A DNA stretch of 47,509 bases from Trichoplax sp. H2 (lineage: Eukaryota), in the NCBI GenBank assembly GCA_003344405.1, contig NOWV01000119.1:186001-233509 (forward strand), in the 5' to 3' direction. Under the pieces are notes generated by a model. It had not been told where the DNA came from. It saw nothing but the letters and a program-made list of their open reading frames with translations, and did no database searches. The position numbers and the translations under genes were made by a program. Below are positions 6,471 through 46,608 of this stretch, in pieces. Numbering within the stretch: position 1 is the first letter of the stretch; each line of letters begins with the position of its first letter.

Positions 6471-7274
6471 TCACTCTTAAAGGTACATTCTCATTATGAA
6501 GTTGATCAAGGACTCATCGTGATACAACCCGACGGCATCAACGACTCGATTTCGTTACCTGATTAATTTACTCTACTTTTGAGATAGTGTATATATGTCA
6601 CATATACTTATACATATATCTCTATATATGTATACGTAACAGATGCACTATCTCACAAGTAGAGTAAATTAATCAATCGATCGATTAATTTACTGTGTAT
6701 ATATTATATACGTAACATATACACTATCTCACTAGTAGAGTAAATTAATCAGGCAATGAAATCGATCGAATAATTTACTGTGTATATGTATATACGTAAC
6801 ATATGCCTTATCTCACAAGTAGAGTAAATTAATCAGGTAATGAAATCGATCGATTAATTTACTGTATATATGTTATATATATATTACGGCCATTCCTAGG
6901 AATGATTTTGTCCGGGCAGTTAGCAAAATGACCGATTTCGCATACCGTCCCGTTTATATATGCACTATCTCACAAGTAGAGTAAATTAATCAGGTAATGA
7001 AATCGATCGATTAATTTACTGTGTGTATATATATATATACGTAACATATACACTATCTCACAAGTAGAGTAAATTAATCAGGTAATGAAATCGATTGATT
7101 AATTTACTGTGTATATATATACTGCATATACTTAACATATACACTATCTCACAATTAGAGTAAATTAATCAATCGATCGATTAATTTACTGTATATATAT
7201 ATATATACTTAACATATACTGCACCTTATCTCACAAGTAGAGTAAATTAATCAATCGATCGATTTATTTACTGT

Positions 7275-7308
<34 letters not shown>

Positions 7309-7778
7309 AACATATACATTATCTCACAAATAGAGTAAATTAATCAGGCAATGAAATCGATTGATTAATTTACTGTGTATGTATATATATACAGCATATA
7401 TGTAACAGATACACTATCTCACAAGTAGAGTAAATTAATCAATCGATCAATTAATTTACTGTATATATACTTAACATATACACTATCTCATAAGTAGAGT
7501 AAATTAATCAGGTAATGAAATCGATCGATCAATTTACTGTATATATGTTATATATACTTAACATATACACTATCTCACTAGTAGAGTAAATTAATCAGGT
7601 ATTGAAATCGATCGCCTAATTTACTGTATATATATATATACTTAACATATACACTATCTCACAAGTAGAGGAAATTAATCAGGCAATGAAATCGAGTCGT
7701 TGATGTTGTTGGTTGGCCATATCATGAGTCCCCGAGTCCTTGATCAACTTCATAATGAGAATGAACCTTTTATGAGTG
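6471..7778. mobile_element. Foldback-like element: ~130-bp imperfect terminal inverted repeats enclosing a tandem array
   Basis: 6471-6598 is the reverse complement of ~7645-7778 (CATTCTCATTATGAAGTTGATCAAGGACTC vs GAGTCCTTGATCAACTTCATAATGAGAATG; CATCAACGACTCGATTTC vs GAAATCGAGTCGTTGATG). No TSD or transposase identified. Confidence 0.6.
6646..7700 (+). repeat. Tandem array of 12 units (~70-95 bp), each with an internal inverted repeat and a variable (TA)n tract
   Basis: Unit CACTATCTCACAAGTAGAGTAAATTAATC(AGGTAATGA)AATCGATCGATTAATTTACTG(TA)n..TAACATATA, starting at about 6646, 6722, 6806, 6963, 7051, 7142, 7225, 7318, 7412, 7481, 7568 and 7652. Confidence 0.95.
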
Positions 7779-12613: not shown

Positions 12614-14551
12614 TTACGCGATCTGAGGGAAAAGTTTTTTCAATTGGCAAACTGTATCTTCTGGCGATGTAACGGTATGACCAATTGTGCGTTCGCTATT
12701 AAAAATTTCGTGATCGTTCCCACCCTGATCGTCGCGAAAATATGTTATCTTAGTATTAAAAGCATCGATTGAATGATACATTATATTCGCTTAAAAAGCA
12801 ATCAGGCTAAATCGCTAACAACTGTTATATACCGGTTGAGTTTTGTCACCAAAGAAATAAATTTGATCGAATTCATTTGCTGGTATATGACGTAGGCAAT
12901 AAGTTTTGTCCCATCCGATTGGAAAGACATCAATACTAATTTGCCCACCTATGTCAGTGTCCAGTACAAAAAGTTGTCACAATTTTGAATAGTGGTTATA
13001 ATATTTCAATTATCCTAAAGTAAATTGTCCTTGGATTAACATGTGTACCGATCGCAAATTGTAGGCCAACATCAGGAAATTCTTTTCGGAGAGCTTGTAG
13101 AAACTTGAGTCGAATATTTTCAGCCTAATAGAAATTGATCGTCATAGATAAATATAAAATAGGATAGTATGATAGTATATTATGATAGCATGATAATACT
13201 CGTATACCATCATAGAGTAAAACTGTATACACGTAGCTAGAAAAGTTCAAACAAAGTTTCTGATGATACCTTGTCCAAAGCGACAAATTCCAATCTTTCG
13301 TCGTAGCTACAGCTGCGTCCAATAGGACAAAGATTAATCATGCTAGAGCGGAATTCAACAAAAGTACCTCTAGAATGACAAATCAAGAATTAATGAACTA
13401 CTGTTATGTGATGTTAAGTTATGTAGTACTACAGTATATGACTCGTATGTATTGACGTAGAGCGATAACGAATATGCGTCTACTCTATTTATTATTGCAT
13501 GATGGTATTCAACCTTTTCCTAGGCAATTGCAATTCAGACATGTATTTTAAAGCAAAGTTGATGACTTTCTGTAAGTTATCATCTCCGATGCAGCTGACA
13601 ATATTCTATGCAGGTATTACAAAAAGGATCAGAAGTCAATTTTGAACAATTTATTTACCCACTATTCCTACACTGACTATTGATGAATAGCCAACAATAT
13701 CATGGTATAGCAAGTTGACTGACCTCAGCGCTTATTAATTCACCCTTCTTATAACCAACAACTCCATTTTCAGCAAAGACATAATCATAAAACTTGGGAA
13801 CTGGCGAGAAAGGATTGAAATCATACAATAGAATTGATTGTAAACTACCTACTTCATATCCATTGCAATATAAACAGGACCAACTAATGTAATAAGTCTT
13901 ACAAGTCGTGTTACAAGACTTGTTGACAAATTGGCAGTTGTACTGAAAAGACGTAGGTATATTCAAGTCATCTATAAAACAATTTTCTACTCCTCTACGG
14001 AAATGCTCATTCCATTTGAAATAACTGTCTTGGCAAGTAAACCCAAGCGGAACTACAGAAGAGTATACTGTTTATAGTAGATCCCATTTGTACTAGTGTT
14101 GTCGCCTGCTGATGATCTTTGAATTAATGTCCTATACTGCATGTATTTGTAAGCTTGGATGACTAGAATACAAACAGCGAGCTATACAAGCATGCCATAC
14201 GATAGCATGTAAGAGAAATAAGTTTATCTTTTCCTTACTATCCTCTCCACCCAATTGTTCCTTGATTTTGCCATAATCTGATCCACCAACAATGCCAACA
14301 GCAACATGTTTCTTAAGGTTTTCTAGGGTGCATTTCATGTTATCCTCAATAAGCTAATATTGGAGAGAGAGTTAGTCAAGAAGGAGTAAATTGATCGATG
14401 ATGGATAGCAACAAGCCAAGAGAGTGCAAGTACTTGTACTGTTGAAGCCTACAATCTACAATAGTACAGCCTTCAATAGATCATCGCTAACCTTGCGAGC
14501 TGGCGTTAATGTGCCATCCACGTCGAATAATACAAGTATTTTGGCAGCCAT
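12614..14551 (-). CDS. PMM2: Phosphomannomutase (eukaryotic PMM, HAD family), multi-exon
   Basis: First exon [20 protein letters not shown] (14492-14551); [60 protein letters not shown]; stop TAA at 12614-12616. It is probably co-orthologous to PMM1 and PMM2. Confidence 0.95.
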
Positions 14552-14729
14552 TTTCACCGATTCTAAATAATCAATTTCCTAAATGTTGATCTCCTTTTTC
14601 CAACCGATTCTCGTCGACACTTTAACTACCAGTAGTTCTACGCACCAAAATGAAATCTCCTCCGAGTTAGTTGTATCCGGTTTGCTCAATCGCAGTCAAC
14701 AAAACTCCGTCAGCTGTAGTCCAGTTAAA

Positions 14730-15480
14730 TCTACTATACTGTACATGCAGTATACAGTACAGTACGTGATAAATCCGTCCATCCGACCACACAGTACACA
14801 GTACTGTGTATTGTGTAATACAGTGTACAGTGTACGCTACTGTACACTGTACACTGTTCAGTACCAATCTCGACATCTCGTACATGAGAAGTCTGTCCAT
14901 CCGACCATGTAGTACACAGTACACACTCTACTGTACTGTACAGTGTACAGTATAGCAGTTGTACAGTACATGAGAAGTCCGTCTATCCGACCACACAGTA
15001 CACAGTACAGTACTGTACTGTACTGTACTGTGTGACGGCCCAGCCATAATAACCCCGATTACTCACATACAGTACAGTACTCAGCGTAAATACAGTAGCT
15101 TCAACGATGATACAGTACTGTACAGTGTACAGTACAGTACATTATTCTAGGAGTTTTACAGTGTACAGTGTACGCCACTGTACTGTACTGTACACTCAAC
15201 AGTATAGTTCAGTACCAATCTCGTGCATGAGAAGTCCGTCCACCCGACCATACAGTACACAGTACACACTACAGTATACAGTACTGTACTGTACAGTGTA
15301 CAGTACAGTACGGTTCAGTACCAATCTCGTACATGAGAAGTCCGTCCATCTGACGATGCAGTACTGTACAGTATACTGTACAGTACAGTACGGTACCGTA
15401 CCTGTTGTACTGTACTGTACGGTATTGGTGATAATGGGTAGTACAGTACGGTACTGTACGTACAGTACAGTACCGTATAA
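14730..15480. repeat. TACAG/TACTG low-complexity palindromic tract with ~5 embedded copies of a CTCGTACATGAGAAGTCCGTCCATCCGACCA-like unit, between the divergent PMM and LRR genes
   Basis: Directly visible. It generates the spurious Y/C/T/V/Q-rich ORFs in the track. Confidence 0.9.
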
Positions 15481-15514: not shown

Positions 15515-15525
15515 CAAAATGGCGG
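15515..15525 (+). promoter_or_regulatory. YY1-like motif CAAAATGGCGG upstream of the LRR gene
   Basis: Matches the YY1 consensus (CAARATGGCGG), about 50 bp before the ATG at 15574. Function is untested. Confidence 0.35.
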
Positions 15526-15573
15526 ATTATTGCTAAACAACTTTGGATAGATTTCAACACAGAAGAGAACGCC

Positions 15574-18500
15574 ATGACTTCACACGATCGTAAAGAAGTC
15601 AAAAAGCTAAAGGACAAAGCTGCCAGTAAAACTCTTTTCGGCAGTAATCAAGACATTGTTGTGATTGCAGCTGAAGATATGGTAAGCTATGACAGAATCA
15701 GCTCACGAAATGCAGCAGTAGCTTTAGAGCAAGAGTATAGTCAACATACTTTAGGCATGGAAACGAAATGAACAGTCAAGTGAATTATGATGATTCTCCA
15801 GCATAGACTTCAATATGGGTGAATTAAGAATGATAGTAGAATGCAATCAATTTTGAAGCTGATAGTTACCTATAGTACTTGCTATAGTCATCGGTAAGGA
15901 ATAAATTAACCTTCCAATCGATACACATCAATTAGAATTATTGAATTAAATTGTTATCATTCAGTATAAGCTTCAAGATCGATAAATAGACACGGTATAA
16001 GGATAGAGTGAATTTCGAAAAGGATACAGTTACTCTTTCCTAACAATAATATGGACACTATGATATTGAGAGAGCCTATCAATATCGCCGATTAGAGCAA
16101 TATATTGTACACGTATAATACATTACTCGGCCTATAACATACGCGTGAACTAATTAACTTGCTAGATACTTCATTAGCTGCTGTGTGCAGTGATCATAGA
16201 ATTAGATGCATACTGTACAGTGACTGATGGAAAAAAAATAGCTATGACGTAAGTTATTATTCTGAAACTTAACAAAAGTCTTAATATAGATAAATACAGT
16301 TACTGCGTGACAGTAGATGGTACGGCATTCGGCTGTTTACTAAACTAGCCAGATCCCTCATTAGCTGCTGTGTGCAGTGATCATAGAATTAGATACATAC
16401 TGTACAGTGACTGATGGAAAAAATAGCTATGACGTAAGTTATTATTCTGAAAGTTAACAAAAGTCTTAATATAGATAAATACAGCTACTGCGTGACAGTA
16501 GATGGTACTGCATTCGGCTGTCTACTAAACTAGCCAGATACTTCATTAGCTACAGTACTAAAAGCTTCAACAATTGCAAATTAACAACCAATATAAGAGT
16601 AGTATTAATTTCCTGACCAATGGATTGATTGATCTGGTTTCATGATATGTGTTTTCGTATTGTATATCCAATAGTTGAAGAAATGCAACGAAAAACACTA
16701 CGCCGACGTTTATAGCCTGGATATAAGCAACACTGGAATAACAAGAATTGCAAACTTAGAAAAGGTAAAATCATTCCTCACACCTGCCATGAGAGTATCA
16801 ATAGGTCAACAATGACAATACAAGTAAAAGTATATCAAAGCCAAATCAATGATTTCTATCGTTATTGTTATCTTTACTATGAACTAGTAATACCGTATGC
16901 AATGGGGCTATGTCGTTATGCTTGCTATTGGAATCAATGTCAATAGAATCCAATAAATAAAGAATTATAATTAATTAACTTTATTTTCACTCTTCCTTTA
17001 ACTCCATCATTAAACACAGTTTATAAAGCTTCGAGTCTTGGATTTATCATGTAATAAGATAGAATGGATAGATGGTTTACAACACAATCAGGTATTTTTG
17101 TTACTGATTAATATAGCATGTTTGATATACGTATCGTAAAACAAGTATATAACAACCTCTCCACACCAGTGTTCCCATATAAGTTTCTAGGGATTTGACT
17201 TTCACCTTTTTCTGTATAGGAATTGCGTGAACTGAAATTATACTCGAACAAAATTTCTGAGTTAAATGGCTTAGAGAAGTAAGTAACCAGTAGCTGTCAA
17301 CATCAACATTCCCAGAAACGATCAATAATAATTTAACAACGACAGTACATACAAGTGTATGCTACGGCCAGTGTCGATAATACCTGAATAACTTTCTAGT
17401 TACCTATTGTATGTACAATTTTATACTGTACAGTGTACAGTATACTTATCTACTTTCTTAATCTAACTAAAAAATGTTCACAATGACAGACTTAAAGGAT
17501 TAACTAACCTAATTCTTCAGTTTAACAACATTACTGAAATAGGTAAGTAGTATTCAAATTTATCTTAGGTTTTGTATACCATAGATTGTGTAATATTACC
17601 AGTAGCATATTTATTGATTAGCTCTTATTAATTTCATTTAGGCAACGGTTTAAAATCGTTAAGGGCACTCAAACTCCTCCGGATAGACAATAATAAAATT
17701 AATAAAGTGGAAAAAAACACGTTGACTTGTTGCCCAAATTTAAGTAGCTTAGACATGAGCAACAATTGTATCCATGATTTAACGGTGAGTATCTTTCGGC
17801 CTTTATGTGATATAATGGGGCTAGTATAGGAGTAATTATAATTTCAAGTCGTTCATTCAGTCATTTCGTGATTCGTTAATCTAAATAAAATGCCTCCCGT
17901 AAAAGTATCAGCTGGGATCATAATACCATTATTTATGACTGATGCATCTCAATTTTGTGATGGTATGACTTATTTCTGTTGATATCTATAGAATATCTGC
18001 TGTTTGAAAGCCTTAACGGAACTACGATTAGCAAATAATCAAATAGAGCATCTACCGGATAGTCTTGCTTGCAAATCAGTTAGTACGATTCAAGCACCAT
18101 AATAATGAACATTATCAAAAAATTTATACGAGTATTTTTCATGCTGTAACTCAGACTGCACCATTTCGCTAGTTATAAGTGAAATTAGATTAATCAAATC
18201 TACATAATTTATGCAATTTTTTACTAGCTGTCGGAATTAGATCTATCAGGTAACAGTCTTACCGATGTTGGTAGCTTGAATGGTTTACATGTTTTGAATG
18301 TAAGTGTTAACAATCATTTTAAATAAATCTATACAAGCATGTGGTTCCAGAATAGAAGTAGAAATACATAAGAAATCCAAAAACTGGACGATTTATTGAG
18401 CGACATGCCCAACTAATTTTGAATTTAATTTACTTTGATAGAATCTTAATATCAGCCGAAATAAAATACAGACTTTGGAATCATTAGGGAAAATGGGGTT

Positions 18501-21323: not shown

Positions 21324-22064
21324 TTATTGTTTCAATATGCTTGCATAGCTTGTCAAGGCCGTCAGCGTAATAGAGGCAGTTTCACTTCTTAAGATGAAAG
21401 GACTTATCTTGATGCCAGTAGCACCAAGTTGATTTTCTAAATAGTTGATTTCTTTATCGGAAAATCCTTTCTCAGGTCCAATGCAGACAGTTTTACATTG
21501 AGCTAGGGTGGATTGAGGCGTAAATCCAACCTGAGCATTATCCAAGTGCCTAGTATCACCAAAACATATTGGGTGCACATTTGATTGTAATTTTAAATTA
21601 TGCAAACGATCAGCAAATGTCAACGTTGGTAAATCGAGGCGGCCACATTGCTTTATAGCGCTTATAGCAATCTCAGTCAATTTCTTACAACGTGCAGAGC
21701 TAAATTGCGAAATTTCACCTAGTTCACTGGCGTAGAGGTAAAAATGGCTTACTCCTAATTCAGTACATTTCTCGATGACAAGATCTAAGCCTTTACTTCG
21801 TATAAGTGGCTGAATTAAATTGATTCTCGGTTTATCCAGTACTAATTGCGTCAAGACTTGATCAATGTTTACGTGAGCAATTTGATTGCCTTGATAAGCA
21901 TCGATCCTGGCCTGTGCTAATTGATTTCTACCATTTATAATTTCTACCGTTTCTCCGACTCTCAGTCGCATTACATTCTTCATATGATGTAACTGATCGC
22001 CTTGTAAGGCAACTCTACCATTTTTGACCAGGTTGGAATTTAAGTAGAAGCGATAGCATGGCAT
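21324..22064 (-). CDS. rsmE: Bacterial-type 16S rRNA m3U1498 methyltransferase (SPOUT family), intronless, 246 aa
   Basis: Motifs HHMKNVMRLRVGETVEIING, VIEKCTELGV, AIKQCGR, IGPEKGFS and ILRSETA occur in canonical RsmE order and give a typical length. Confidence 0.93.
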   Translation of the reverse strand: MPCYRFYLNSNLVKNGRVALQGDQLHHMKNVMRLRVGETVEIINGRNQLAQARIDAYQGNQIAHVNIDQVLTQLVLDKPRINLIQPLIRSKGLDLVIEKCTELGVSHFYLYASELGEISQFSSARCKKLTEIAISAIKQCGRLDLPTLTFADRLHNLKLQSNVHPICFGDTRHLDNAQVGFTPQSTLAQCKTVCIGPEKGFSDKEINYLENQLGATGIKISPFILRSETASITLTALTSYASILKQ

Positions 22065-22828
22065 GATTCAATCGAGTAGCTAGGCAAAATTACGCGTATG
22101 TTTATGTGAATCTTGTAGGAGTTGTAGGCCACTGGTGTGGAAATTTTCCGTCGCAATAGGATAAATCAGTTGTAGCTTTCAAATTCTTCAATCGTGGTGC
22201 TAAAACTATCAATAGCAATAGTGTTAATACCAATGGTATCAGCTAAAATTGGCAGATAAGAAAAGCCTATTTAAGAATTGCTGCATTGCAAAGTATTTCA
22301 ATCCACCTGCATTAATATCAAAATCTGATTGGAATTAATAATCTTCACTTTCTTTCGGAACGCAAGGCTTTCATGCGATATAACACAACACTGCCAAATA
22401 CAATTAGCTTTTAAATCAGAATCTAGACGCTAAGGGATATTATCTTTCTCTAGATCCGCTAAGATTTAAAGTTATCATGTTACTACAGTAGATTTTCCTT
22501 CAGTGGAACTACGAGCCTCCTCAGGGAAATCATGGCCGCCATCGGCAAAGATTGCCAACTACAGTACTGTCGTTGGTACTCGAAATCAGGCAGTGTACAC
22601 ATTACACTCGCCTGTAGAGTATCGGTTAGTCTCTCTATACAGTCATACAAGTGGTATATTCGATCTGCTCACATGTAAAAGCTTTTATATAGATCGTACA
22701 GTATAGCAAGATACACTGAGTAGTGCTGCTGGTATTCGTAGCAGACTATGGTATGCATATTCACTATGCTATTTTTATAATATATCATAGAATTCGTTTC
22801 TACTGCAAAACACTGCTGCACACTATTT

Positions 22829-23112: not shown

Positions 23113-24028
23113 AATTAGTAATACCACATGCAAACTTTGGTACGGTAGACTGTACAGCATGCAGTAGTATATTACTGTAATATGGTGTGCTTGGAATCTT
23201 GCTAAATTAACGATGTATCCTAACTCAAAGCAATCTTCTCTACACCTCATTTTCTTCGCCTAATGCTGTACTCTGGCAGTCTGACTCTGTTATGTAAATC
23301 TGATGCACAAAAATGCTGTACAATATATATGACATTATTGCGCGCTACACTGCTTACAATTACTACGCAAATTAAGATATCAAGCAAAAGTAATGCAAAG
23401 TTGATAACGCGTAACTACTAGAGACAAGAATTCTTACGGTATCGATTAGGAACAAACCTGAAAATATCGGTAGCCTAGAGCCAGCAAATATATTTTTATT
23501 TTTTATCTCAAAATTCATGTTTTTGCATAAATTTATACTACGCGTAAAACAAAGTTGTAATAAAGCTTGCAATAACAGTAACGCATGAACCCTTCTACCT
23601 ATTTATTCCATGACATTCATGAACGCATTGAATGATTTTTTGATACTGCTAGCAAATACTTTACAACGTATGGGGGTAATATTCTTCGGCATAATAGCAG
23701 CCATCAATAGCTGGTACATTTTCCGTTACAAATTTTCAGATATGCAGTACATGTACATCGTTCTGGAACTATTATAAATATCCACTAATAAATATCATCT
23801 AAATTATAATCGTTAATTTAAGGACCTACTATTCGTGAAGGTACAAATTACAGCGGATAATTAATCATATCATTACTGCATACTGTATTATAGTCTGTAC
23901 AAAAGAACTTTATAAACATATATTAACGATGCAATATTACATTTACTACAAGTCTTTGTACAAAAAATGTTTGATATCTAAGATATTGAAGAAAACTAAT
24001 TTTAACAATGCACTAGATTACATGAGAG

Positions 24029-27000
24029 TTAAGCAGACAATGATGCCTTCTTTCGTGATGCCTTCGTTACAAACAGAACGAACGACATAATCTTTTCATA
24101 CATGGTAAACATCAAAGCTGTAGTTAAGACGGTCTGTAATAGCTTCGCCTCCAAGCCTTTGAATAGACCAGAGAAGCCTTCATGCCTAGCGAGGTAAATA
24201 AGACAGAGTAAATTCGATGTGTGACTGTCATGTTAGGTTGATCTTTAAGGATTAATAATCTTAAATATTTCGGTAAACTTACGAATTAATACACAATGAG
24301 TTACAAACCTAATTATCTCCTGCATGATAGTAATGAAGGTACGCTTCTTATTGGCCTTTTCAGAAGTATTGTGCTAAGGATATTTATGGACATATAAATT
24401 AATAGTTAATATTAACGACACTTGTCTTTATGCGGCAGTTATTTTATATGAAGTTACCCTTAAACGAGCTTGAGAGACTTGCAGAGGGTAAGTGAGCACA
24501 GTTGCAATAGCCTTTGAGATTGCGCCCATTAGGAATACCAACCAAGATGGAATCTACAGTAAAAACACCAGTTGTACATACAAGTTATGACCTATTATGA
24601 GCTAAGTGATAAAATAGAATAGCAACCAGCGGCAACCATTTCGACATAAGGCTATTCATGTAAATTAATAGTAGTAATCATAATAATAATAATAGTGCTA
24701 TTTCATTTGAAGACTCCAGCTTTAAATGATTTTAACGAGTAACCTGCATATTGTTTTTTCCTCGAGTAATGTATCTTTTAAGAGCTTCATATGACATGAA
24801 CTGAATAGCGGGATTACAACATAATACCAATGATGGTGCTAGACCACTCCATAAGGAAAGTATTCCCTCTTCCTTGATAATACGTCTAAAGCAATCTGCC
24901 ATTATAATAACGATACTTTATCAATTAGACTGTCTACTCGTATACAATGTAGCTCAATTTGAATTAGGTGGCATTACATTAACGTCAACTTACCAAAAAT
25001 ACCGGTATACTGAGTCTTTTTTATGACTTTATTGTTATAATCACGAACAGTCACACCTTGCAAACGCAGTCTTGTATTTGCAACCCAAAGTGGAGTTGTT
25101 GCAAAAACATTAATAGTACCTGTATTACATTACCAACACTTAGCAAGTTTTAATTCAAGACTGTAAGCATAACATTCACAATTGCTATACTGTTTATAAT
25201 GTTGTCTTTTTTTAAGCTCGTAAAATGAAGATAGCAAGTAGAAACGCATAAACTCAGTACTGTAACAAAAATTTAACATCACGATTTCTAATATGACAGA
25301 ATTTACAGAGAATTAAATTTAGCTATTATATTGAATGCCGCTAATGATCTCGAATTGAAATAAACTCCTTCAAAAATTAAGAAGTGCGCAATTAATTAAT
25401 TTCCTTATTTCCACTCAAAGTAATATTCTCTTTCCATAATCTATGAAAATGTAATGGCTTAACCATACACTACAATCGATACTACCAATAGGTTGGTTCA
25501 ATATTTAATTGATGAACATATCTAAATATATATTTTGAAATAATATTCAAGCGCGAAAGATTTACCAGCAACCATTCCAACCACTAAATCACTAACTGAC
25601 TGAGTTAAAGGTAGTTGTTTAACCACATCCAACATCCTCAATCCATTGAAGGCATAAAAATAAACAAAATTCGAACAATACAGGCTGGTTAGCACAGGTC
25701 CGAAGCCGGTATAAAGAGCAGATCTATGGAGAAAGTGTAGTGACAATTGGTTTAGTTATTAACCCGTTTTGTCCATATGATTCTATTGTATTTGCAATAT
25801 TTTAAAGTAATGGTTATAAAACAATTTATCTTACAATCCTTCCTCTCGGATAATTTTGGCTAATATCTGATGGGTTGGTTTAACCAGTTTGGTCTGCATA
25901 TCAACTATACATTGATCATGCAAAGATCCACAAAGGCATACGATGATATCAATGAAAAATATTAACAAAAAGTAATATAAATACAGAGGTATTTATAGTT
26001 AGTAAAGTACTGCAATTGCGCCATGTATTTATCTTTCAAGCTCATTCGCAAGCTGATAGCTGCCTAACTCGCACGATGTTCGACAGTTTAATAAGTGCAC
26101 ATGGCTTACTATCAAGCAACAGAATTGCATCAGCCTTATTTCAGCTATTGCTACAGAAATCAAGTCAGCTAGAATTGACTTTGTTAAGCAGTAGCTAAAT
26201 ATACAGTGCATATGTATCACGTGAGCATATAAGTACGCTAAGGTGGTTGTTTATATATCCGAATTAGATACAGTAGCTAAACACAGTATTTAATATAAAC
26301 GCGCTCAGACAACCTGGTTATAAAAATGTCAACGTCAGAGGTTAACCCTAAGTAAAGAATTAATTAAAGTTAACATCAAGGTTGAGATACTGAATCGGCG
26401 AATGCTTCATCAGCCCACTATCTCAGATTTGGTGTTAACTCCATGCGGAGATGTTCTCCATTAATTAGGGTTGAGCTAATACGTTGACAGAGTTGGCTGA
26501 TCATGATGTATCGTAACATACAGTGTACAGTATGAGCTAGTTGGCACATCGAAATAACCCATCCATGCACTCTATGAAATGCTATTCTAATTTCAGTAGA
26601 GCCCGTAGGAATAAGCGCTAAAGTATTGAGCATGCAAAAAGCTCAACTGCCATACTTGCAAAGTGTTGTGTCTAAATGCCGCCTAAATCTGTACAAAATC
26701 TCCTATACATTACCTTGCAGACGAGTTCTAGCCAGATCTAATGGATAAAAGGTAGACATCGCTACCGCGCTGCCCTATTTAGAATAATACGATAATCATA
26801 AAAATTTTCAGAAATAACAAGCTTTGAAGATGATGCACGCATCCATTGACCAAAATTTGCACGAATGGCTATAAACGGACATGATATATGGATAGTAATA
26901 ATGGATTGTATAAGCGCATATGCAATACGGTTTAATAGCTTGCAACCTTGCAACTTTTCGACCGTTATCAGAATGCGATAGTGACGACTGTGTACTGTGC

Positions 27001-27299
27001 AAGGAATGGCTAACTCTAAAGTAATAACATAATCAAAGGCATTCCTACAGTCAATACAACTAACTGTATTGTTCGATCGTTATAAATCTTCTGGTTTTAC
27101 AGTCGATCCTTTTTACTCATGCCTTCTCTACTTACTGTTTTTGACATCAACCTTACTGTATTCATTAACAGGCAACATTGTAGTTATACACAATCAAGTC
27201 TAAAATGAACAATTAGCCAAGGATTTAGTCTAGGTAAAAGCTTACAGAAGCTCCAGCAATGGCGTGTGTTAACGCATCGAAGGTTAAAAGCGAAGACAT
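24029..27299 (-). CDS. SLC25A17: Peroxisomal membrane carrier PMP34, paralog A
   Basis: Exon 1 [18 protein letters not shown] (27246-27299), [71 protein letters not shown]; stop at 24029-24031. Confidence 0.92.
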
Positions 27300-28806: not shown

Positions 28807-29798
28807 TGCAAGTGCAAAGGTGCTGATTCATAATTAATTAAAAAGACTTGCTATCTCTTTCTCTCTGTTAGTAGCCCTTGCTAACTCTATCTCTACTGAT
28901 ACTTGGTAACTATCTAGTGTTGACAATTTCAGTACTAGGTACATCATCGAGGTTTTATAAACGGTTTCTGCTACCGATATCTACAACATCTGTTTTGTAC
29001 AGTAAAGATAAATAAATTGCCAATCGAAATCAACATCCATCGTCATTGAGTAAATAGTGAAAATCAAAAATTGGGTTGATTCTTAACAGATTAGAAGAGG
29101 AGAGGGAATAATTCAAATTATATCACTTTAAGTGATGTAATCTGTAATACACTATGCAAAGCGTGAAATACAAGTACTTGTAGTTCATTCGATCTATTTT
29201 ACTTTATTTCTAGGAGAAATCAGGACAAGGTATCGAAATCTAATCAATTGCTACAATGCAATGAACCAAGTTATAGCTGTACATACTGTACACTTACTTT
29301 AAAGTAGTGTACGACGTCAAAAATAAACATGGTCTGCTAGCTATCATTATCGTACAACATCCACTGTAAGATTGACACTATTTCAAGATAAAGTAACAAC
29401 TTTATTGTGCAATGCTTTATTACAGTAGAGGATGAGAAATATGATGCTAAAATCTTCCAAGTAATCTTGACAAGTTACATAAAATTTGTATTCCAACAGG
29501 CGGCAGCCTCATACCTCCATTAATACGAATCATGTTTTAATATCGACTATAAATGCCCCTAGCCAGCTAAATATTATTTTCGATGTGGTTAAAATTGGGA
29601 TTATAAATAAAAGCTTCATCTACGGTAGCTGGAATAGTACTAATAGATATCAACAGCGTTAACGCTATAAAAGTACTTGAAGGATAACTAGATCTAGAAT
29701 ACTATATCGCATATACTATTGTAATCCAAATAAGAACATTCCGTTTGTCTATTGAAATTGAAATATAATATAAAATTTTAAGAAGAGTACATCCAAGT

Positions 29799-32642
29799 TT
29801 ATTTCTTAATTCTAGTAACCCAAAAGACAAAGGCGATAATTTTTTCGTAAATAGTAAACATTAAGGCCGCCGATAAAACCGTCTGCAATAATTTCGTCTC
29901 TAATCCTTTAAATAAACCACGAAATCCTTCATGCCTATTATAGTTGACCAGTTATATTCAGTTAAATCATAAATAGAAATGCTGCTATCCATGATATCCT
30001 TGTTATACATCACTAGAGAAATGAAACTGCTACAGGAAACAGAGTGTAACAAGATTCATTGAGTTGCAAGACTTACCGTAAGATTTCTCTAAATATATTA
30101 ATAACTGTACGCCTTCTCTTAGAATTATCATCTACAGATGCATTATGCTATATAAAATAAAAAAAAATTTATTATTTTTATGTTGATCTTTCTACAGCGT
30201 ACGCATGCCTGAAAGTTGATTCATTGCAAGATCGAAAACTTTTATGATATTCTTACCCTTAGACGAGCTTGAACAATTTGAATAGGATAAGTCAAAACAG
30301 TAGCAATTGCTTTCGATATTGCACCCATAAGAAAAATAGTTAATGCCGATATCTAAAATATGAAATGAAAATAATTCTATCAAATCAAGTAAAATGTAAG
30401 ATTAATAAGGTATTATTATCCATCTATGACAGGCAGATTTTACCTCTACACCGCCGGTATTACGGCGAATATACCGTTTGACAGCTTCATATGACATGAA
30501 TTGAATGGCTGGATTAGTTACTAGCATCAGCGATGGGCCGAGGCTGTTCCATAAAGAAAAAACGCCTTCCTCCTTTGCTATTCTCCGAAAGCAATCTATA
30601 TAAATGCCAAATAATTAAATGGCCGTCCTATCTGGCATTCCGGCATGTTACACTGTATCAACAACTGTATTAATACGCGCTATCGGTCTTTAATATCGAC
30701 TAACCCCACATATTTAAATAAGGTTTCCTGTCGATCAGTTTACGGTTATAATCTAAGACCTTCATTCCTTGCAATCTTAGTCTTGTTGATGCAACCCATA
30801 AAGGAGTAGTAATGACAACATTGACTGAGCCTAATAAATATCGATAAACAGGTTCAATTTTGGTTCAACTGCAAACGATTTCAATGCTATATCCTCCATG
30901 TACGTTGTTATTATTATTTTATGCTTCGTACTTACAATAATATTTAGATTAAAAACAAAAACTAATTTATAATTATCATTTGCAGCTTAATAAGAGTTAT
31001 TACCAGCAATCATCCCCACGACAAGATCGCTAATAGATTGATTGAATGGCAATTGTTTCACTCGGTTCAACATTCTTAGCCCATTAAAGGCATAAAAATA
31101 GATAAAATTGGAACAGTATTGGCTAAATACCACAGGAGCAAAGCCAGTATACAGGGAAGAGCTATGACAGTCATAAAAAGTTGCGGATAAGTTATAAATA
31201 TTTATTTTACTAATAATCATTCGATTTTAGATATATAAATAATTCAACGTAAATCACGAGATCCAATCACAGAGATGATTATTAACACAGTCTAATTACT
31301 AATCACTATTCTATATGGATACTAACAATCCTTCTTCGCGGATAATCTTGCTTAAAATTTGATAGACTGGTTGGACATCTTTGGTTTGTGTATCCACTAG
31401 ACGATCATAATATTATTATTACATGGCAATTCTTTTGAGTGTTTTAATGCTTCACATTCGATCGTCTACAGTATATACTCGTCTAGTATTATGGAAAGCT
31501 TACCTTGCAAGCGAGTTTTGGCAAGATCCAATGGATAAAATACACATGTGGACAAAGCACTACCCTACATCATGCAAAAAATAATTGTACTATAAATATT
31601 GATAATACCATATAACGGCTTCAATACTCTTCTGTTATAATCATTATTGATTGAGTCGACGACATTCGCTTGATACCTGTTACAACGGAGTATCGCGAGG
31701 CTTTTTTGCCTAATTGCTAACATTCACACCTACTAATCCCATCTTTAGCATGGTACTACCTATGCTACAAGCTAGACTGCGCTAACGGTATATCAAAACA
31801 TAAGTTGCTGATCCATCAATCAAGAGTGTCATCCAGTATCGCCTGCGACAGGCTGCATCCTACTTGCACTATCGCGATAGTCGTGGTTGTTATTTTGCGA
31901 ACATAATCTATTGGTACGAGATTGTAGAATGCATCTATCTTTCATTAATGGACAGTACATTAACATGATCTACTGGTACGAAGTTATAGAATCCATTTAT
32001 CCTTAATGAATGGACAGTACATTAAAAGTAGATGAGAAAATAAGGTTGAATTGCTACTTGTTTATCTGGCACGAGTGCACGAATTTTACTACCGCTATGG
32101 GGATATTGATGACAAGTAGACCATAACAGAACGCTTGATAATACAGAATATAGTGTCATGGGAGGAAACTTGGTACGTCGAGTTAAGGATTGAATAACAT
32201 TACTTTATAGGAAAAAGCTATCCTTCTTATTCTACCAATCAAAGCTGTTTGAATCCCATATCCTACATGTGCTACATGCACTTAATACAGGCGCAGGATC
32301 CTCTGTATGACATTGATTATAGCATCGCTTGGAGAGTCTCGAACGATAATACTACAGCGATAATCCTATCCATTCTACTGTACGCTGTATTGTTATGCAG
32401 CAAATTTAGACAGTCTCCATTACAATGCATAGTAATACCTACAGTAAGCTCCATAACTGTATACTGTAGGATATGGGATATCTCTGCTCTTTCTCCGCTG
32501 TCTACGCCATTCGTATTGACAAGTAACTGCTAGTGCATCAATTCAATTCAACAGTGCTCTATGCATCTGATGGACGAATAATACTTACGGAAGCTCCAGC
32601 AAAAGCGTGCACAAATGTTTCAAATGTTAGCAGAGTTGACAT
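29799..32642 (-). CDS. SLC25A17: Peroxisomal membrane carrier PMP34, paralog B
   Basis: Exon 1 [18 protein letters not shown] (32589-32642), [75 protein letters not shown]; stop at 29799-29801. Intron positions match paralog A. Confidence 0.92.
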
Positions 32643-33197
32643 CGCTTGAAGTGAAGTCGACTGCAATCTTTCATTTATCGCTGAATTGAACTGAACCACT
32701 CGCCAGTTCTTTGAATCCAATGTTGGAGTATTACGCTAGGCAAAATTAGCGTAGTAACACTGCCAATGCTGACCAAATTTTCAATGCCACACTGCTCAAT
32801 CAATTCATTCACAGCCCCTAGCGGTAAAGTTGAAACTCTTGGCGCAACCTTGAACCAAATTGCTTACTGTAGTACCGCAATGGCAAGCAACTTGTTAATT
32901 GTGACAAGAAGACGAATTGCAGGCAGTAGTTGCTGCGTCACTCATCAGCAGCGACCTGACCGGCGGTGGTGACTGACTTTGGTAGGCTCAGGTGGTCTTG
33001 TGCCTTTTCTCACTGAATTCTTGACAGTAGTTGTACTGTATGTACAGAAGCCTTGGTACAGTATGAACTTTGAACCCTTCAACCGGAGTCGTCTGACCTC
33101 ACCCGTTTGGTCGTGTCAATTCATTCAGTTGGCAGTGACATCTGACTCGGTGTGGTGTATCGGTCGGCACTTCAGCAGTGACATGTCACACGCCTGG

Positions 33198-33875
33198 AGT
33201 ACAGTACGTAACGGTAGGTTGTACAGGGTATACTGTACGCAACTGTACAGTATGTATTGTACAGTACTGTACAGCATAATTCGGAAGGTCGCCCGGAAGT
33301 TTTGGGCCCAATTCTACAGTACGTACTGATAGAAGTACAGTACAGTACTGTACTGTACAGTAGAGCAAGTCAAACCAGGTTGAACCACGATCGTGATACT
33401 GTACAGTATGCTGTACAGTGTACAATACAGTAAAGTACTGTATGTATGTACTGTACACTGTACAGCACAATTCGGACGGTCGCCCGGAAGTTTTGGGCCC
33501 AATTCTACAGTACGTACTGTACTGTACTGTAGAGCACGTCAAACTACAGTACAGTACTGTACTGTACAGCACTGTACCAGTACTGTAGGTTGAACCACGA
33601 TCGTGATGTACTGTACTGTACTGTACAGTACTATAGAGCACCTCAAACCAGCTTGAACCACGATCGTGATGTGCTGTACTGTACTGTACTGTACTGTACA
33701 GTACTGTACCATACTGTAGAGCACCTCAAACCAGGTTGAACCACGATCGTGATGTGCTGTACTGTACAGTGTACAGTACTGTACAGTACAGTACAGTACT
33801 GTACAGTATAGTACTGTACAAAGTACTGTAACAATACTGTATGTTCACTGTACAGTACAGTACAGTACAGTGCAG
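33198..33875. repeat. TACAG/TACTG tract with embedded units (4 x GTTGAACCACGATCGTGAT-like; 2 x AATTCGGANGGTCGCCCGGAAGTTTTGGGCCCAATTC), between divergent SLC25A17-B and LSM11
   Basis: Directly visible. Confidence 0.9.
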
Positions 33876-33976: not shown

Positions 33977-35441
33977 ATGGAAAGAGATCCTACCTTAGAC
34001 TTTGCATCGGATCAATTTGATGCCTTGAAAGCACTTTACACGAAAGATTTAAAGCCACCGTGTGATGATATACAACCTTATGACAATCTAGCTTCGTATT
34101 GGGCAGCCGTTCAAAGGCAAACAAATCGCAAGACTGATCGAGCGAGCGCCAGCAATCAGCCTCCTAAAACAGCCGCTGCTGCTGCTAAATCGGCTAGAAA
34201 AGGCATCAAGATCAACGACATTGCAACAAAGAGTGCACGTACTGTTAATAAAGAAAAGAAACTCAAAAATAAAGCCAAGCCAAATGTCCTTGAAAGAATG
34301 AAACGTATGTAGACACATTTATACAAGATGCAAATTCGATTAGTGACAATCTAGCTAGCTAGCATCGATATCGCAAAACGTCATTACTGCTCAATAATCA
34401 GAAGGATAGTCATAATTTTGGCTTACACGCGTCCAAATTGTGTGATTCATGTTTGCTATTCCTTGTAACCTGATAGCAATATTGCTTGTAATTCTTGCAA
34501 TCGAAATTTCAACTCATTCTTAAAGTAATGCAAATATCTTGGAATTGATATCCTATGCAATTGCAAACATTGCACGGATACAGTCAGTACCTTACAATTG
34601 GATACACATAGACGAGTGCTATTGTAATTTATTATACCATCAAGATTCGCTGCCCTTGCATTGCTTGCACTGCTGTAATACAATATCTTTTGTGATTCTT
34701 TACCATGCATACAAAAAGTTTTATCAAGCGGACCTTTTAGCATACTGTATACAGCGTTAAATGAAAGGAAATCGGTACACATTTGGACTCGTAGCTATGA
34801 TAAACTTCGAGGAATTTGCCGTGGTTTTGTTGCTGCTTTCGACAAGCACATGAATGTCGTAAGTCATCCTGCGTAGCATGATCGGTTGTATATTAACTCC
34901 AGTGTGTAGTACATATACATTCTTTCTATTACCAATATTACAGTCAAATTTAAAATTGGAATGCAATGAATATGATGCATTATCGTCTACACACAAGTAT
35001 CGCACATAATTCTAAATGATAACTAATGAACTAACATACACTTGCGATTCTACGTACAACACTCAGGTCCTAGTAGATGTAGACGAAGTTTACACGTTGC
35101 CACATTATTTCATGCGTTCTGCCGGTGGAAAAAATTCAAGTAAAGTATTAGCCGAAACTGCGAGTCATGACAGTACCGCTGCGGCTGTTTTACACCTACT
35201 CGCAAATGATCCATCCAGTGAAAATTATTCAAACTTGAAGGGTATTCATGCCTGCTCGTTGAAATCTGCCCTCCAATATAAAGTCACTGGAACGGATCAA
35301 TTTCGGCGTATAAAGAACTTTGATATAACAGAAGATGTTATCAAAACTGATCAATCATTCATCATTGTCAGAAGATATTTACACCAGGTTTACCTAAGAG
35401 GTGAAAATATCGTAATGGCATCTTTAGCTAATGCCGATTAA
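33977..35441 (+). CDS. LSM11: U7 snRNP-specific Sm-like protein LSm11, 3 exons
   Basis: N-terminal LDFASDQFDALKALY; Sm1 GPFSILY..VHIWTRSYDKLRGICRGFVAAFDKHMNV|VLVDVDEVY; long spacer; Sm2 RYLHQVYLRGENIVM. Exons ~33977-34304, ~34719-34858, 35067-35441; the exon 2 acceptor is uncertain. Confidence 0.88.
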
Positions 35442-38702: not shown

Positions 38703-38970
38703 GCTACAGTACAATATACTGTACACAGCCCTATTAGGTACATACTGTACTGTACTCCATGCATAAGAGATCCTGTACTACAGTACTGTATACTGTACTG
38801 TACAGTCCTTGCGGTACACTGGTACTGTACTGTACAGTCCATGTCATGCAGTTCCAGTTAGACCTGACTTCCAGTACGCTCGTGAGCACAGTACGGTACA
38901 TACAGTACTGTGCTTCAGCGTAAATATGAGCATGTGCAGTATGTCCACTTTTCTATCTACGGTACAGTAT
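38703..38970. repeat. TACAG/TACTG-rich tract upstream of RPL18
   Basis: Dense TACAGTAC/TACTGTAC words. Confidence 0.75.
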
Positions 38971-45177: not shown

Positions 45178-45427
45178 GTTATTCTTTCTTGCCAAATGAA
45201 TCGATTGAATGAAATACTTTGGGTAGACTAGGGTAATCCATTGACTCTAAGGCTTACGCTACACTCTACAAGTGGTGTATCAAACAGTACCCCATAGTAT
45301 ATCGCAATGCTAGAGATTGGCCTGTCATCATTGACTCAGCGGTCTACAGTACAGTTCGAGCACCATACAGTACAGTGTTGACAGTACATTATACTGTAGA
45401 TGCAGTACAATGTATTGTACTCTCCAG

Positions 45428-46608
45428 TCATCTTCTTCATCAGCACCATGGAGATACGGAATAATGAAAGCAAAATGGAGTTTTCTTCCATTTTGTCATT
45501 CATTATTTTTGTGTTCTTCGTTAGTACCATAGCAAAGCAAAATGTTGTTTCATTTTGTCATTCATTCTTACTGTGTTCTTCGTCAGCACCGTAGCAAAGC
45601 AAAATGTTGTTTCATTTTGTCGTTTATTCTTACTGTGTTCTTCGTCAGCACCGTAGCAAAGCAAGATACAGTTTCATTTTGTCATTCATTTTTACTGTGT
45701 TCTTCGTCAGCACCATAGCAAAGCAAAATGTTGTTTCATTTTGTCGTTCATTCTTACTGTGTTCTTCATCAGCACCATAGCAAAGCAAAATGTTGTTTCA
45801 TTTTGTCGTTCATTCTTACTGTGTTCTTCATCAGCACCGTAGCTAAGCAAAATGTTGTTTCATTTTGTCGTTTATTCTTACTGTGTTCTTCGTCAGCACC
45901 GTAGCAAAGCAAGATACAGTTTCATTTTGTCATTCATTTTTACTGTGTTCTTCATCAGCACCATAGCAAAGCAAAATTTAGTTTCATTCTTACTGTGTTC
46001 TTCATCGCCACCATAGAGATATAGGATAATGAAAGCAAAATGTACTTTCTTCCATTTTGTCATTCATTCTTACCGTGTCCTTCATCAGTACCATCGAAAA
46101 GCAAAATGTACTTTCTTCCATTTTGTCATTCATTCTTACTGGGTTCTTCATCAGTACCATAGAAATACTGGATAATGAAAGCAAAATATATTTTCTTCCA
46201 CTTTGTCATTTATTCTTGCTGTGTTCTTCATCAGCACTGTAGAAAAGCAAAATATAGTTTCATTTTGTCATTCATTCTTACTGTATTCTTCGTCAGCACC
46301 ATAAAAAAGCAAAATGCAGTTTCATTTTGTCATTCATTCTTACTGTGTTCTTCATCAGCACCATAGCAAAGCAAATCGTAGTTTCATTCTTACTGTGTTC
46401 TTCATCGTCACCTTAGAGATACTGGATAATGAAAGCAAATGTAGTTTCTTCCATTTTGTCATTCATTCTTACTGTGTTCTCCATCAGCGCCATAGAGATA
46501 CTGGATAATGAAAGCAAAATGCACTTTCTTTGAATTTGTGATTCATTCTTACTGTATTCTTCATCAGCACCACTACATTTCTTTCATTTTGTGATTCATT
46601 CTTACTGC
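45428..46608. repeat. Satellite, ~18 copies of a ~62-bp unit with 49-, 66- and 80-bp variants
   Basis: Unit TTTCATTTTGTCATTCATTCTTACTGTGTTCTTCATCAGCACCATAGCAAAGCAAAATGTWG; a period of 62 is seen at 45541/45603/45665/45727. Confidence 0.95.

Follow-up and report, generated by a model that had tools for sequence, protein, structure and literature searches.

What wrote the runs of TACAGTA and TACTGTA that lie at the 5' ends of genes in Trichoplax sp. H2, and why do they lie there? In the 47,509-base stretch of DNA analysed here (the window), the two heptamers, which a first-pass annotation had noticed, occur 85 times each, and base composition predicts about 10.5 occurrences in total. The link of these words to promoters is old, and the question is one of origin; the answer bears on a recent claim that ties placozoan promoter hubs to Mutator elements.

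Heptamer tracts and the promoters they mark

The heptamers are concentrated in four tracts, given here with the neighbouring genes.

14730..15480, unstranded: tract 1, 39 heptamers, between the divergent PMM and LRR genes
15177..15423, unstranded: locus-specific tandem duplication of about 106 bp (TRF period 106, 2.3 copies)
14492..14651, minus strand: PMM first exon (ATG 14551; RNA contig of run X14, joint 14353-14492)
15516..15525, plus strand: AAAATGGCGG, which we take to be a YY1-like motif, directly beyond tract 1
15574..15682, plus strand: first coding exon of the LRR gene (ORF, ATG 15574; 3' end approximate)
32865..32871, unstranded: solo TACTGTA, next heptamer 162 bp off
33198..33875, unstranded: tract 2, 50 heptamers, between SLC25A17-B and an LSM11-like gene
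ATG 32642, minus strand: SLC25A17-B (Pfam Mito_carr match)
ATG 33977, plus strand: LSM11-like gene (label only), on the other side of tract 2
38703..38970, unstranded: tract 3, 12 heptamers, some 115 bp before the presumed ATG of RPL18
ATG 38589 (presumed), minus strand: RPL18 (Pfam Ribosomal_L18 match)
45343..45420, unstranded: tract 4, small, 3 heptamers, about 170 bp upstream of the ASPSCR1-like ATG
ATG 45177, minus strand: ASPSCR1-like gene (weak UBX match)

The annotation had placed these four tracts correctly, and all four lie 5' of the genes it had named. Heptamer density is 52 per kb in tract 1 and 1.45 per kb (66 heptamers in 45.7 kb) outside the four tracts. The weaker traces that had been reported before ZIP11, rsmE and SLC25A17-A hold two or three heptamers each and are near this background, at whose density about two such close pairs in the window would, by our estimate, be expected by chance. 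The statement that the words are only scattered elsewhere puts their presence too low: with tracts masked, TACAGTA still tops the list of over-represented 7-mers (197 occurrences against 73 expected in 213.8 kb, second-order Markov model), and it is the only strongly raised word of the form TA-NNN-TA outside tracts (observed/expected ratio 2.7; next word, 1.7).

The sequence of tract 1 is a mixture of TA-CAG-TA and TA-CTG-TA, some 7-bp CAGTGTA or CACTGTA units and a few CGG/CCG units, and the 106-bp tandem duplication has multiplied the units there. The 3' part of the tract folds much better as single-stranded DNA than shuffled sequences do (z = -6.6; 0 of 200 shuffles), as one would expect of units in mixed orientation. 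Transcription of PMM reaches at least to 14651, about 80 bp short of tract 1, as seen from an RNA contig, and a Pfam PF03332 (PMM) match lies on a downstream PMM exon. On the other side, the LRR gene has Pfam LRR matches downstream of its first exon, and RNA contigs cover positions 15615 and 15634; these contigs were used for covered stretches only, as transcription start sites are not derivable from them. The word AAAATGGCGG has a single copy in the window, and a 5-codon upstream ORF (15519-15536) that precedes the LRR gene overlaps it. For the gene starting at 33977, a Pfam search returned no match, and its LSM11 label is a tentative one, given for likeness.

Several other features of the window were recorded. 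The two SLC25A17-like genes stand in tandem (23465-27299 and 29348-32642, minus strand) with parallel intron patterns, and only the B copy has an upstream tract. Minisatellites occupy 6675-7695 (about 84 bp, 12 copies) and 45489-46572 (about 62 bp, at least 8 copies), the latter starting directly past tract 4. An intronless inward-rectifier potassium channel gene (529-1662; about 40% identity to GIRK channels) has no tract in the 0.5 kb upstream of it visible in the window. An intronless ORF at 21324-22067 (minus strand; PF04452 and PF20260) encodes an RsmE-type RNA methyltransferase, and the identical protein is found on two contigs. RNA contigs from three runs cover this ORF and extend past about 22205, which suggests a spliced 5' leader. 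The RsmE family is mostly bacterial, and an integrated gene transfer is possible.

Across the 94.9-Mb assembly, a four-unit pattern of 19 letters occurs at 6,928 sites and its reversed control at none; the tracts belong to the (ACAGT)n promoter repeat already described for Trichoplax. Of seven proteins taken from other loci of the assembly, five are identical to records of Trichoplax sp. H2, a sixth falls into a cluster with such records and one was absent. The G/C form of the repeat (GTACS-type arrays) was considered as the main motif and dropped, being rare (33 sites). The repeat marks housekeeping-type promoters rather than all promoters. Of 13 proteasome subunit genes, 11 carry at least five heptamers in the 1.2 kb before their first recognised coding exon (the 13 range from 3 to 31, with 0-3 in gene bodies); the start points were placed by eye, two of them roughly. 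Of 147 GPCR matches the top 30, all intronless ORFs, were profiled, and none reached this number (range 0-2; Mann-Whitney P = 7e-8), with the caveat that possible 5' introns would put their promoters further away. Clear upstream clusters are present at about three of seven multi-exon genes of the Ras family, whose start codons were not placed, and at one of about ten intronless ones. Among the proteasome genes themselves, tract strength varies about tenfold (3 to 31 units). The association with 5' ends that the annotation had proposed is thus confirmed for one class of promoter rather than for all, and it is lineage-wide.

Much of this agrees with Wang et al. (2010; PMC2871265), who identified ACAGT as the dominant microsatellite of T. 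adhaerens. In their data 54% of (ACAGT)n lies no more than 1 kb upstream of a gene and 85% no more than 5 kb; they found it enriched at translation genes and proposed a factor site. The promoter association of the repeat is thus already known, having been published 15 years ago.

Five-base modules are gained at plain TA

The annotation had allowed that the tracts might prove to be arms of a randomly distributed transposon family. They are not the arms of any one family, although a MITE does sit within some of them: masking the units leaves one word family, common to 12-14 of 73 tracts, which is the arm of this MITE. Allowing one mismatch, a 22-mer of the arm matches 53 sites in the genome and its control none, and the arms often form inverted pairs. 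The arm supplies a known ancestral sequence inside the tract, and with it a dated and polarised substrate, which makes the writing process measurable across strains. Tract 1 contains a single arm, with units at three of its TA sites.

15037..15153, plus strand: single MITE arm inside tract 1 (22-mer sites, alignments)
15070..15079, plus strand: two CAGTA units at a TA of the arm, missing from other arm copies
15093..15097, plus strand: one CAGTA unit at the second TA, no adjacent template
15113..15139, plus strand: five-unit stack of 27 bp at the third TA (alignment with other copies)

The stack consists of four 5-bp units and one 7-bp unit in mixed orientation. The 69 distinct arm copies contain 16 insertions of at least 4 bp: 11 are CAGTA/CTGTA units at TA, two are one-letter variants of this and three are local duplications (a tally made by eye over 5,788 aligned bases with 5.7% substitution). 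About seven different TA sites were hit, three of the 11 unit insertions have a substitution beside them, and the rate amounts to about one unit insertion per 30 substitutions. These units are gains, because the majority of copies lack them, and the ancestral arm offers no adjacent template at the insertion points.

A wider comparison gave similar events. When homologous repeat copies were compared all against all in about 750 kb, 21 of 39 five-base indels were CWGTA at TA: nine contexts (seven events) arose de novo, seven lie beside a unit of the other type, and five are possibly slippage. The solo unit at 32865 is likewise five letters that are missing in an RNA contig of run X8, from another strain or species. 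Taken together, plain TA dinucleotides all over the non-coding DNA gain a 5-bp CAGTA/CTGTA module, which may point either way, and such additions are far commoner upstream of housekeeping-type genes.

Addition is not the only process at work. Neighbouring units have opposite orientation in 353 of 882 cases (40%) and the same orientation in 529 (60%; z = 5.9), an excess which implies that slippage or copying contributes. The tracts also seem prone to fold-back duplications. Within one of them (L158, 997-1113) lies a perfect inverted duplication with 32-bp arms, specific to this locus, which had been considered as a second TA-CAG-ended hairpin and was discarded as such.

The resident MITE and the 7-bp units

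The MITE itself was considered as a writer of Tc1 type with TA-CAG ends and was rejected, because non-palindromic 8-bp duplications put its boundary five bases further in. Its flank consensus is NTGTACAN. A non-palindromic direct duplication matches at 8 of 8 positions at L186 and L218 and is less clean, judged by eye, at L215 (arm truncated) and L225 (5 extra bases). Elsewhere the 8-bp fit is 7-8 of 8 at three sites, which are palindromic and hence non-discriminating, and 5-6 of 8 at four; the nested copies at L148 show no 8-bp duplication. A duplication of 9 bp gives 0-2 matches of 9 in 12 of 13 end pairs, and the boundary of the thirteenth is one base off. Buster-type hAT elements are defined by target duplications of 8 bp that have TA at the centre (PMC3517528, PMC3499496), and the MITE looks, from its ends, like a hAT-like resident element and not the writer.

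Two peculiarities of MITE copies were observed in passing. At L230 (C1074:229644-230574), the inner part has been amplified to a tandem array of about 67-bp units between both ends. At L159, L214, L223 and L225, the same five extra bases stand between the target duplication and one MITE end, and this subfamily may have picked up a unit and then transposed together with it.

The 7-bp units are duplications at the target octamer of the MITE. They were found 142 times at 1,195 NTGTACAN sites, never at 719 NAGTACTN control sites and 10 times at 1,855 asymmetric junctions. Plain slippage would have no preference for one of the two palindromes. We prefer the reading that the 7-bp units may be remnants of hAT target-site duplications. 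Footprints of TcBuster are described as variable small indels (PMC3517528, PMC3499496), so no uniform product of 7 bp has been established for hAT elements.

Origin of the tracts and known systems

The reading that we favour, with about even confidence, is that the tracts were built by a transposase of the Tc1/mariner superfamily acting on open chromatin. Each module would be the excision scar of such an enzyme, whose elements would end in TA-CAG...CTG-TA. The transposase would strike accessible promoters most, each scar would create a new TA target, and at promoters only the short scar would survive selection. Slippage and larger local duplications then lengthen the runs of units. The CTG-TA-CAG junctions so made would be the preferred target of the hAT-like MITE, with the 7-bp units as possible remnants of its target sites. 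Should the tracts be accumulated scars, cause and effect may be reversed, with open promoters collecting the motif: a tract may in the first place record that chromatin was open, without having opened it. The tracts may later have acquired a role in insulation or looping, and the present function of the tracts is a question separate from their origin.

This model demands that CAG or CTG with a further TA be added where the ancestor had one TA; such gains are seen in the arm copies, in the repeat indels and in the contig of run X8, and the canonical excision footprints of Sleeping Beauty are TACAGTA and TACTGTA (10.1101/659086). Also in its favour are the equal counts of the two words, the 40% of neighbouring units with opposite orientation, the excess of TACAGTA outside tracts, the promoter bias and the 7-bp duplications at the MITE's octamer. 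The scar model is weakened because the searches described next returned no intact Tc1/mariner element or writer. Relics of Tc1 and pogo transposases are present in the genome. The Tc1 relic at L188 (1378-2541; C323) has an apparent intron and one in-frame stop, and L189 (886-1968; C183) is an intact ORF of 361 codons with HTH and DDE_3 domains, in which the first catalytic aspartate is apparently replaced. L190 (1042-2688; C276) is a single-copy ORF of pogo/Tigger type with 549 codons. Unlike L191 and L192, it appears to retain all three acidic residues of the catalytic site (D, D, E), to judge from their spacing. No terminal repeats were found around L188-L192. L189 and the pogo-type ORFs L190-L192 look domesticated, and L190 is a candidate domesticated transposase. 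The PF01359 (mariner) profile had no match in the genome and none in the control genomes either, so that it had no positive control. A scan of about 750 kb for elements ending in TA-CAG...CTG-TA revealed no family and returned four pairs, three of them parts of the MITE and the fourth a local inversion. DNA transposons do not usually leave scars by the tens of thousands without any stranded elements. Further points against the model are the hAT-like boundary of the MITE, which had been the first candidate, the excess of neighbouring units with the same orientation, and the report by Wang et al. (PMC2871265) of no active transposon in T. adhaerens.

Templated break repair, an explanation that we consider unlikely, would need no transposase. 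Breaks would occur at open promoters, and microhomology-primed synthesis of polymerase theta type would write the units: a broken end with TA would anneal to a unit close by, be extended by CAG or CTG and a further TA, and be rejoined there, making the arrays self-spreading. This would account for the absence of a transposon, for units that cluster and point either way, and for sites that gained several units. Most of the re-checked de novo units lie 13-35 bp from another unit, and the 27-bp stack of tract 1 matches 25 letters within 300 bp (null P 0.09); both observations fit templated repair. However, the copying test was significant in none of six multi-unit insertions (P 0.09-1.0), and the products are nearly all exact 5-bp modules, not varied copies. 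The unit at 32865 lies 162 bp from the nearest other one, solo units are 2.7-fold enriched far from tracts, and the source of the first units would be left unexplained.

The first-pass annotation and Wang et al. (PMC2871265) instead see a selected promoter element, made of factor sites or of DNA that forms cruciforms or keeps nucleosomes away, which grows in the manner of a microsatellite; the annotation had likened its function to that of CpG islands. As an account of origin this has, in our estimate, only a small chance of being right, although it may still describe what the tracts do today, should they have arisen by mutation. It has in its favour the strong 5' bias at housekeeping genes, published (PMC2871265) and seen here in the proteasome and GPCR sets, and the strong hairpin potential noted above. 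In addition, repeating ACGG and ACAGT are among the pattern-linked motifs of the Chimaera model of T. adhaerens Hi-C data, in which repeating ACAGT inserted in silico alters predicted insulation (PMC12817080), and Kim et al. (2025; PMC12221973) describe a conserved motif at the loop anchors of housekeeping (GP1) promoter hubs in placozoans. This anchor motif is likely the ACAGT motif studied here; PMC12817080 equates it with ACGG, not ACAGT. The Hi-C model result is correlative, however, and slippage is unable to place a first unit at a plain TA. Units are also found within introns and the MITE arm, duplications specific to each locus make up the spacers, and the tenfold range of tract strength among proteasome genes is likewise not what a selected element would lead one to expect.

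That the tracts are TIRs of Mutator elements inserted in promoters is very improbable: Kim et al. (PMC12221973) report Mutator TIRs carrying the anchor motif at GP1 promoters in four placozoans including sp. H2, Wang et al. (PMC2871265) list six MuDR fragments in T. adhaerens, and the resident MITE has long arms, but across 73 tracts the loci share only units and the MITE and no common long TIR, the MULE PF10551 profile has no match in the sp. H2 assembly, the MITE ends fit 8 bp and lack a 9-bp duplication, the label comes from automatic EDTA annotation (PMC12221973), which could be misled by units in mixed orientation, and PMC12817080 ties the motif to ACGG.

Returning to the transposase scar, we may join these observations into one chain. 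A DNA-cutting enzyme that still works, perhaps a domesticated transposase of pogo/Tigger type such as L190, would have written the placozoan housekeeping promoters, stamping 5-bp scars into open chromatin with no elements left behind; the hAT MITE would home to the stamped sites; the arrays would since have taken on the part of loop anchors that CTCF plays elsewhere; what Kim et al. (2025) call a 'Mutator TIR' would have been annotated as such by mistake because of these scars; and the length of a tract would serve as a natural lineage record of chromatin accessibility. As a whole, this chain is distinctly unlikely.

A footprint origin of the repeat was not found in the literature surveyed, outside which most subscription papers and Repbase Reports fall. 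Passages of PMC6067683 make no mention of the motif, and Wang et al. (PMC2871265) refer to five placozoan non-autonomous elements in Repbase Reports. The additions made here are threefold: insertions into the MITE arm whose direction can be read, a MITE boundary of hAT-like kind, and 7-bp units that are specific to one octamer.

The (ACAGT)n of Wang et al. is the same pentamer, genome-dominant and upstream-biased as it is here. It is treated as a perfect microsatellite, whereas the units described here are mixed in orientation, anchored at TA and gained de novo; the accessible part of that study proposes no origin (PMC2871265). The motifs of Chimaera (PMC12817080) and of Kim et al. (PMC12221973) are the same or sister pentamers at the same class of housekeeping promoters. 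Kim et al. place theirs in Mutator TIRs, for which we find no support. Buster-family hAT MITEs such as Mar (PMC3517528) are, like the MITE of the tracts, short and non-coding, with terminal inverted repeats and an 8-bp duplication with central TA. Their arms measure 5-27 bp as against about 70-115 bp here, and the target here (NTGTACAN) is narrower than theirs. The scars of Sleeping Beauty are products of single experimental excisions and include many shorter, non-canonical forms (10.1101/659086), which by word counts with tracts masked are not enriched here. Its canonical Tc1-type footprint consists of exactly the same words as the tracts, and adds the same five bases at TA (10.1101/659086).
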